DNA of 64,000 nt from the NCBI GenBank assembly GCA_964016885.1, contig OZ024743.1, positions 342,240,001-342,304,000 of the forward strand. The letters run 5' to 3'. A program made the translations under genes and the position numbers. Of the stretch, positions 47,152-48,698 are shown one piece after another. The stretch's first letter is position 1. Each line of letters starts with the position of its first letter. A model generated the notes under the pieces. The model was not told where the DNA came from. It was given only the letters and a program-made list of their open reading frames with translations, and searched no databases. Source of the stretch: Eledone cirrhosa. Taxonomy: Eukaryota.

Positions 47152-48698
47152 TACATTATGAAGAGAGAAGAAACATTTAGATATAATTAGTAATAAAATG
47201 TATCATACCTAAACTGCTCCTAAATTCCTCGACTACGTAGTTTCGTGGCATAAACAAAAACAATATATCATAAAGATATAGAGTCCCTGCGAGGTCTGCC
47301 AACTTATCAAGAGGATACCTCATTTTACTAGTCTCAAGAACGCGTCTACACGACGTGAGAAAGAATCCCAAAAGGCGGAGGGGGAGATAGTCACGCGATA
47401 TAACGGTCGAGAAACAGAGCTAAGCCTCTTATAACCACGAAGAAAATACCACGGAGGCGGAGGGGGTATTCATATCGAGGCCGCAGAAGAGGTGGTGAAG
47501 AAGGCGAGAAGTATGAGTAATGGAAGCTCTCCAGTTGTCCCCACACTTCAAAGATTGCTCGACCAGAGGGAGTTATTAACAATATATTTAGAAACACACA
47601 GATACATGCGGACACACACATATATACATGAATGCATCCGCACCCAACTATGAGTGAAGGGTGCCAACTTCACCGATGTTGCTCAATGAATGACTGGGAC
47701 AGACCAATTCAGTTGAACTAGACTGAACCAGTATCAGAGTTAAAAATACATTATGAAGAGAGAAGAAACATTTAGATATAATTAGTAATAAAATGTATCA
47801 TACCTAAACTGCTCCTAAATTCCTCGACTACGTAGTTTCGAGGCATAAACAAAAACAATATAATATAACAGTTTAGGTATGATACATTTTATTACTAATT
47901 ATATCTAAATGTTTCTTCTCTCTTCATAATGTATTTTTAACTCTGATACTGGTTCAGTCTAGTTCAACTGAATTGGTCTGTCCCAGTCATTCATTGAGCA
48001 ACATCGGTGAAGTTGGCACCCTTCACTCATAGTTGGGTGCGGATGCATTCATGTATATATGTGTGTGTCCGCATGTATATGTGTGTTTCTAAATATATTG
48101 TTAATAACTCCCTCTGGTCGAGCAATCTTTGAAGTGTGGGGACAACTGGAGAGCTTCCATTACTCATACTTCTCGCCTTCTTCACCACCTCTTCTGCGGC
48201 CTCGATATGAATACCCCCTCCGCCTCCGTGGTATTTTCTTCGTGGTTATAAGAGGCTTAGCTCTGTTTCTCGACCGTTATATCGCGTGACTATCTCCCCC
48301 TCCGCCTTTTGGGATTCTTTCTCACGTCGTGTAGACGCGTTCTTGAGACTAGTAAAATGAGGTATCCTCTTGATAAGTCGGCAAACCTCGCAGGGACTCT
48401 ATATCTTTATGATATATTGTTTTTGTTTATGCCACGAAACTACGTAGTCGAGGAATTTAGGAGCAGTTTAGGTATGATACATTTTATTACTAATTATATC
48501 TAAATGTTTCTTCTCTCTTCATAACGTATTTTTAACTCTGATACTGGTTCAGTCTAGTTCAACTGAATTGGTCTGTCCCAGTCATTCATTGAGCAACATC
48601 GGTGAAGTTGGCACCCTTAACTCATAGTTGGGTGCGGATGCATTCATGTATATATGTGTGTGTCCGCATGTATCTGTGTGTTTCTAAATATATTGTTA
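47152..48698. mobile_element. Fold-back of a non-coding 595-bp tandem unit carrying one HHR (retrozyme-like)
   Basis: CATTATGAAGAG at 47154 and 47749; CAGTTTAGGTATG at 47869 and 48464; arms 47152-47862 (-) and 47869-48698 (+) nearly identical; (TA)n flanks. Confidence 0.9.
48365..48454 (+). ncRNA. Type I HHR with U3-A8 core (mirror copy 47226-47315 on minus)
   Basis: TCCTC-TTGATAA-GT(C/T)GGCA..TGCCAC-GAA-ACTACGTAGT-C|GAGGA. Confidence 0.82.

Follow-up and report, generated by a model that had tools for sequence, protein, structure and literature searches.

The stretch of DNA analyzed here (the window, 64,000 nt of Eledone cirrhosa contig OZ024743.1) carries at positions 47152 to 48698 what is best explained as one recent insertion of a non-autonomous unit of ∼590 to 595 nt bearing a hammerhead ribozyme (HHR), with the insertion machinery supplied in trans by a Penelope-like element that has an endonuclease (EN+ PLE); we put the probability of this reading at about 80%. 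The observations behind it are the anatomy of the insertion, the failure to detect any remnant of an ORF, units that close on themselves in other sequencing runs, recurrent ends, and a strand-specific RNA fold. The insertion shows the marks of PLEs (both-strand inversion, two recurrent starts, and a TA target) on an ORF-free HHR unit.

The insertion consists of two arms in opposite orientations, placed head to head between two (TA)n tracts (Table 1). Units were numbered with +1 as the base after the hammerhead cleavage site. The best internal period was 595 nt in both arms, and the sequence-only reading that preceded this analysis, which had proposed a 595-bp period and arms of about 1.2 and 1.4 units, was correct on both counts (1.19 and 1.39 units). 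Its expectation of few differences between the arms also held: 660 of 666 bases (flank included) were identical from arm to arm, the self-overlap of the right arm was identical at 232 of 235 bases, and the copies varied at 6 sites in the 1541 bases of the insertion. One intact HHR per unit had been expected as well; each arm proved to have one complete hammerhead, and in the left arm the 3' half of another is also present, substituted at 47841. The sense 5' end of the left arm falls at the stem II hairpin apex. The sense 5' ends of the arms face each other, and the sense 3' ends grade into (TA)n with overlaps of 2 to 3 nt (TA/TAT at the left); a target-site duplication is unreadable inside (TA)n. 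The insertion is real, young, and nearly undecayed.

Table 1. Features of the inverted insertion and its flanks (positions within the window)
Feature	Position	Strand	Basis or remark
(TA)n target tract, left flank	47017..47153		TRF
Left arm, 711 nt = 1.19 units	47152..47862	−	Unit positions −631 to +79; two cleavage-site crossings
Complete type I hammerhead, left arm	47226..47315	−	U3-A8 core at 47310; predicted cleavage 47231/47230
Exact cleavage-site-to-cleavage-site monomer, 595 nt	47231..47825	−	42% GC; fold z given in the text
Second hammerhead, 3' half	47821..47862	−	GAAA, stem III, and cleavage site 47826/47825; private substitution 47841
AT-rich filler at 5'-5' junction, ∼6 nt	47863..47868		Three mismatches to unit in 47864-47868; no long palindrome
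Right arm, 830 nt = 1.39 units	47869..48698	+	Unit position +15 to position +249 of the following unit; one cleavage-site crossing
Complete type I hammerhead, right arm	48365..48454	+	Motif scan and fold; predicted cleavage 48449/48450
Stem I of right-arm hammerhead	48365-69/48450-54	+	
Core of right-arm hammerhead	48370-76	+	Followed by G10.1-C11.1
GAAA of right-arm hammerhead	48436-39	+	
Phase-informative site +170	48619	+	A; C at 48024 and at mirror site 47656
(TA)n target tract, right flank	48697..48761		TRF; common to the insertion and the neighboring PLE
Decayed ORF-bearing EN+ PLE	48762..51599		Protein matches and repeats; inverted pLTRs 85% alike

Both complete hammerheads have the core UUGAUAA (at 48370 on the plus strand and 47310 on the minus strand), GAAA, GUC/GAGGA at the predicted cleavage site, and a 5-bp stem I. 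The right-arm copy has a long, bulged stem II, with 59 nt between the core boxes, and a 10-nt palindromic stem III/loop. Rfam gave no match to a hammerhead family at either the gathering threshold or E ≤ 10, and the hammerhead call thus rests on our own motif scan and fold; Rfam miRNA matches in the element were rejected as artifacts of the palindrome and of TA/TG runs. When the unit was shuffled 1,000 times in two-base blocks, a hammerhead descriptor matched 2 of the shuffles; it matched at 7 places in the window, including both of these hammerheads. The hammerhead-constrained fold (−21.1 kcal/mol) lies 1.1 kcal/mol above the free minimum (−22.2 kcal/mol), and the unconstrained fold of the 121-nt HHR region was no better than those of shuffles (z −0.20).

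PLE hammerheads have been described with a U3-A8 core, a palindromic helix III, dimeric action, and HHR pairs on opposite strands (Cervera and de la Pena 2014, PMC4209133). By analogy, the palindromic stem III of the unit, for which a self-duplex of −12.9 kcal/mol was computed, suggests that cleavage would proceed best in dimers; cleavage was reported in only 1 of 9 predicted dimers by Li et al. (bioRxiv 10.64898/2026.07.22.740005). Stem I has a predicted pairing probability of 1e-4 in the whole monomer or circle and is in that sense sequestered. If the modeled fold holds, stem I would be locked in the folded monomer, and uncleaved or circular RNA could persist. With one complete HHR per arm, the locus falls outside what Li et al. 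count as an active retrozyme.

The 595-nt monomer folds with a z score of −5.97 on the ribozyme strand and −0.37 on the antisense strand (100 shuffles each). Variants were compared with the predicted structure at 20 of 27 substitution rows; two rows (48384 and 48525) were excluded as private to the right arm, and five (48662 to 48674) because unrelated low-complexity contigs align there. Two of the 20 variants break a predicted pair, 10 preserve one, and 8 are at unpaired positions, while 6.6 breaks would be expected by random placement. The deficit of pair-breaking variants gave P values of 0.004 with the MFE structure and 0.001 with the ensemble, compared to 0.72 for the antisense control; these values are indicative only, as the structure is a prediction and the variants share ancestry. 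None of the variants in public sequencing run X1 (see below) falls in the HHR core or in stems I and III, which alone is not significant (rough chance, ∼0.2). Judged against the predicted structure, the RNA fold of the unit looks to be under selection.

Coding content was assessed with a query set of 150 proteins related to a GIY-YIG-type frame that lies in the window. None of these PLE-type proteins matched the element at E < 1e-3, while 146 of the 150 matched the neighboring decayed PLE, which served as a positive control; the absence of an RT or endonuclease remnant, previously proposed from the letters, was thereby borne out. Pfam matched none of the three short frames of the unit (it also missed the PLE proteins). 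A 2-nt deletion at 48408 is present in about one-third of the X1 depth, and its frameshift argues against coding. No ORF with the RT and GIY-YIG endonuclease of an autonomous EN+ PLE was found in the insertion, and on the protein searches and the frameshift polymorphism the unit is, as retrozymes are, non-coding and free of LTR retrotransposon structure. With respect to a tRNA-derived SINE or Pol III unit, ARAGORN reported 0 genes and the unit had no exact A- or B-box match. A possible splice donor lies near 48471 with a pyrimidine tract downstream, and no spliced joint was present among the public-run contigs.

Parts of the unit were contained in 20 of 24 listed public runs (16 studies; none on record as RNA), and four of these runs (X1, X4, X5, and X22) were aligned to one unit. 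X4 and X5 each yielded one contig (620 and 621 nt; depth, ∼8; no branch) that is self-closing over the complete unit, of 590 and 591 nt without the overlap. In X1, 1,726 contigs lie on the unit with a summed depth of 1 × 10^5 to 6 × 10^5, and at the unit-to-unit joint the depth is 12,611, with a share of 0 continuing into unlike sequence. The partial tandems in both arms, together with the unit joint or self-closing contigs in X1, X4, and X5, indicate a head-to-tail organization of the unit.

These contigs bear on the alternative that the arms are pLTR or UTR pieces, or a rare internally deleted by-product, of an ORF-bearing PLE. The same architecture is common in truncated PLEs, Xenopus retrozymes are homologous to pLTRs (Li et al., bioRxiv 10.64898/2026.07.22.740005), and one 342-nt X1 contig (depth, 250) departs from the unit at 48264 into other sequence and may represent a parent or relative of the unit. 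However, unit directly follows unit in both arms, no protein remnant is present, the X4 and X5 contigs close on themselves, and the depth of the branch is small compared to that of the unit-to-unit joint; we therefore regard this origin as improbable. The sequence-only reading had allowed that the unit might map as the pLTR of an ORF-bearing PLE, and for the bulk of the family the self-closing contigs and the lack of an ORF branch speak otherwise. The unit is a self-contained non-autonomous family and not the LTR-like end of a coding element.

If X1 is genomic, we infer thousands of copies of the unit family; contig depth is no copy number, and the X1 library type is not on record. Depth steps across the 48694/48100 joint (∼3 × 10^5 to 5 × 10^5 versus 1.1 × 10^5), which would fit 5'-truncated copies; as summed contig depth is unreliable, the step was set aside as evidence. 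The window locus has near-fixed differences from X1 at 48151 and 48625 plus a 3-nt indel, and X1 may come from another population or species. An identical 12-nt AT-rich word stands at 48690 to 48701 and at 48759 to 48770, on either side of the (TA)n between the insertion and the neighboring PLE; each element's own sequence could supply it, and the window unit has three more bases there than X1, X4, and X5.

Parts of the unit appear under 17 organism labels among the public runs, which were not read as host range or horizontal transfer. In X22 (raw reads, a ∼1-in-100 share of the run; its organism label is also that of X7, one of the runs containing parts of the unit), 5 of 12,836,656 reads fell on the unit, all of them <90% alike and all on low-complexity positions 48646 to 48681, so that X22 has no real unit reads. 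Our guess is that trace carry-over of a very abundant sequence lies behind the labels. A scan with the unit pattern gave 0 matches in metagenome contigs and 0 in viral contigs, and 19 matches to a shorter unit pattern were dismissed as chance 18- to 24-nt matches without further homology.

Loose ends of X1 contigs running into TA repeats were found after 48529 (at least 5 contigs), after 48693 (at least 4), and before 48211 (at least 1), among the 13 of 88 loose ends listed; some of them could derive from this very locus or its alleles. Positions 48529 and 48693 are the unit positions of the left- and right-arm ends, the window lineage having three additional bases near the second. The unit family seems to have two preferred 3' ends (+79 and ∼+249), a Penelope "tail" pattern and not free permutation. 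The earlier description of the unit as circularly permuted was too strong, since the arms stop where other copies repeatedly stop as well. Inverted 5'-truncated copies, tails, and a bias toward (TA)n or other microsatellites are hallmarks of PLEs (PMC8557442; PMC3846280), and the insertion is likewise a head-to-head inverted, 5'-truncated copy with two 3' ends and a (TA)n target. It is an unusually clean record of the insertion mechanism.

The recurrent ends also weigh against two other origins. Inverted repeats beside long (TA)n tracts are hard to assemble, and the junction is known from the assembly alone, but an assembly or library artifact such as a fold-back chimeric read is scarcely credible: the arms show 6 differences and stop at unlike points of the unit, the two flanks are not mirror images, and X1 contains both types of end as well. 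Spread as satellite DNA at the DNA level (unequal crossover or extrachromosomal circles), in which the ribozyme would be left over from a PLE ancestry and repair would have produced the inversion, would accord with the very high abundance in X1 and with the satellite-type local amplification of retrozymes discussed by Li et al. (bioRxiv 10.64898/2026.07.22.740005). We find it very improbable, however, because the strand-specific fold and the variants that keep the structure imply that RNA is under selection, and because the sense 3' end of each arm is at a recurrent site in (TA)n.

In the PLE-mediated insertion that we favor, of which we infer the enzyme, the priming steps, transcription, and cleavage, a PLE protein would nick both strands of the (TA)n tract, and reverse transcription would start inside the unit RNA at two favored points, +79 and ∼+249. 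Synthesis of cDNA would then continue across the ribozyme junction into the unit before it, and a 5'-to-5' joint containing several filler bases would unite the two cDNA products. Both strands are cut and extended by the Poseidon PLE protein, two internal start sites define its tail, and uncleaved RNA was the dominant substrate in vitro (PMC11167929). Within the 64-kb window, the unit shared no sequence with an autonomous PLE end.

The left arm crosses the cleavage site twice and the right arm once, so the template was longer than one unit. A cleaved linear monomer could yield these arms only by exact template jumps. Site +170 is C at 48024 and 47656 and A at 48619, and X1, X4, and X5 list no change from A. 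One circle copied continuously predicts the same base in both passes, and the C-then-A order in the right arm argues against it. An uncleaved transcript of a tandem source (C in unit n, A in unit n + 1) gives the pattern without an extra event. The pattern would also follow from fold-back synthesis with a second cDNA or from later conversion between the mirror sites, both of which leave room for circles, and chance reversion was roughly estimated at ∼0.01 (5/1541 × 1/3 × ∼8 opportunities). The argument concerns one nucleotide, and because 47656 and 48024 are mirror partners, inter-arm conversion could mimic the pattern.

One form of the favored reading is that the HHR frees 595-nt monomers, which are ligated to circles, and that each arm was copied continuously around a circle. 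Animal retrozymes yield circles (PMC7229834), more-than-unit copying from circles has been proposed for PLEs (PMC4209133), and the strongly folded monomer, with the low predicted pairing probability of stem I in the circle, is as a stable circle requires; the C and then A at +170 would nevertheless demand an extra step (fold-back or conversion), and we consider this form unlikely. An uncleaved tandem transcript or fold-back synthesis suits +170 better than continuous circle copying. In our own apportioning of the template, an uncleaved tandem transcript receives somewhat over half of the weight, a circle with fold-back or later conversion for +170 about a third, and a template jump a small share. 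Of the original proposal that a circular or multimeric RNA was copied past full length from both target strands, the template of more than one unit stands, as do the PLE-type marks, and continuous copying of a single circle is weakened by +170.

The neighboring PLE has an RT with YVDD on the minus strand, a GIY-YIG C terminus in both pLTRs, and hammerheads near 51327 (+) and 48950 (−). It has two different 3' ends, both in (TA)n, the right end being ∼65 nt longer than the left. Its layout is the same as that of the unit insertion, without sequence homology to the unit; because no sequence is common to the two, this PLE is a comparator and not a proven partner. In the protein-cluster atlas, its RT fell only in unnamed or HTH_animal clusters.

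Further PLE protein remnants were located by tblastn at 4408 to 4958, 6645 to 6932, 53511 to 53762, 59461 to 59847, and 63262 to 63804, and the window is rich in several PLE families. Other hammerhead-like motifs are at 25443 (+), 27353 (−), 34043 (−), 38001 (+), 57122 (+), 58037 (−), and 59268 (−); several sit within inverted repeats inserted in (TA)n, and the motif at 25443 has a U3-A8 core, as in the unit, and a 12-nt palindromic stem III. An HHR-bearing palindromic insertion at 58037 to 58260 has a near-perfect fold-back center near 58150 and a PLE-type self-priming junction. The large inverted repeat at 27251 to 29723, with 817-nt arms 91% alike, holds an internal 71-nt tandem and the HHR-like motif at 27353. 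Short palindromic (TA)n insertions of a second dispersed family are at 5465 to 5822, 13534 to 13623, 22660 to 22858, 31223 to 31353, and 32588 to 33265, and a 113-nt tandem repeat (3.6 copies, 97% matches) is at 60464 to 60868. The window also contains a Mariner/Mos1-type transposase fragment at 36118 to 36699 (Pfam HTH_48, E 6e-4, below the curated cut-off) and, at 10314 to 13227, a GC-rich (∼50 to 55%) non-LTR retrotransposon, frameshifted, whose frames resemble an RT and a restriction-like endonuclease and which may be of the CRE/NeSL type.

Tentatively, the unit may represent a highly abundant family with structural selection acting on its whole ∼590-nt RNA, which would accumulate in circular form with the hammerhead locked, as in plant retrozymes and viroids; the insertions of this family would then be a record of priming on both strands from two fixed positions within the unit. 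If this is true, phased variants over many copies would reveal whether PLEs copy retrozyme circles or uncleaved multimers, a step that is still hypothetical in the papers cited here. PLE mobilization of animal retrozymes and circle templates are presented as hypotheses in the Discussion of PMC7229834, and Li et al. (bioRxiv 10.64898/2026.07.22.740005) call their own life-cycle evidence limited. We found no description in the literature of a template test by phasing of successive units, nor of head-to-head, more-than-unit retrozyme insertions in microsatellites; supplements or subscription journals may hold the unit family. Variants phased across successive units can tell circle from multimer templates.

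Like non-LTR retrozymes, the unit is a non-coding head-to-tail repeat with one type I HHR, a GC content under 45 to 50%, and co-occurrence with PLEs, and its 595 nt lie inside the consensus range of 51 to 972 bp given by Li et al. (bioRxiv 10.64898/2026.07.22.740005), who also reported a PLE origin of retrozymes. Unlike them, this locus lacks two complete tandem HHRs. The unit is larger than the retrozyme RNAs characterized in 2020, which form circles of 170 to 400 nt in coral, mussel, and axolotl (Cervera and de la Pena 2020, PMC7229834). Folding of the monomer is predicted to block the HHR of the unit; in most metazoan retrozyme circles, by contrast, the HHR is said to stay free. The unit is inserted head to head with two recurrent ends in (TA)n; the word "inverted" is absent from the main text of PMC7229834.

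Insertions of EN+ PLEs (Arkhipova 2013, PMC3846280; Craig 2021, PMC8557442; Frangieh 2024, PMC11167929) share with this one the head-to-head inversion, a partial tandem, two different 3' ends, an AT-rich or (TA)n target, and an HHR near the end. Unlike EN+ PLE insertions as described in these sources, the unit has no ORF, both arms exceed one unit, the junction has no palindrome, and the two ends are offset by ∼170 nt instead of 30 to 40 nt. The hammerheads described by Cervera and de la Pena (2014, PMC4209133) are similar in their U3-A8 core, short stem I, G10.1-C11.1, bulged long helix II, and palindromic helix III, and pairs of them lie 100 to 700 bp apart on opposite strands. Unlike those described there, the hammerhead of the unit carries an additional hairpin in helix II (59 nt separate the core boxes), and within a single molecule its helix III is able to form 3 bp and a tetraloop.

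Non-autonomous Chlamys PLEs such as MRC1 are likewise pLTR-forming, multicopy head-to-tail, and PLE mobilized (PMC8557442). The Chlamys PLEs described there are algal, mostly without a canonical HHR, and similar at their 3' ends to autonomous partners, whereas the unit has no partner in the window. Among these systems, the unit would behave most like a PLE-mobilized non-LTR retrozyme: the sequence-level features mostly agree, and cleavage and circular RNA would be expected by analogy.
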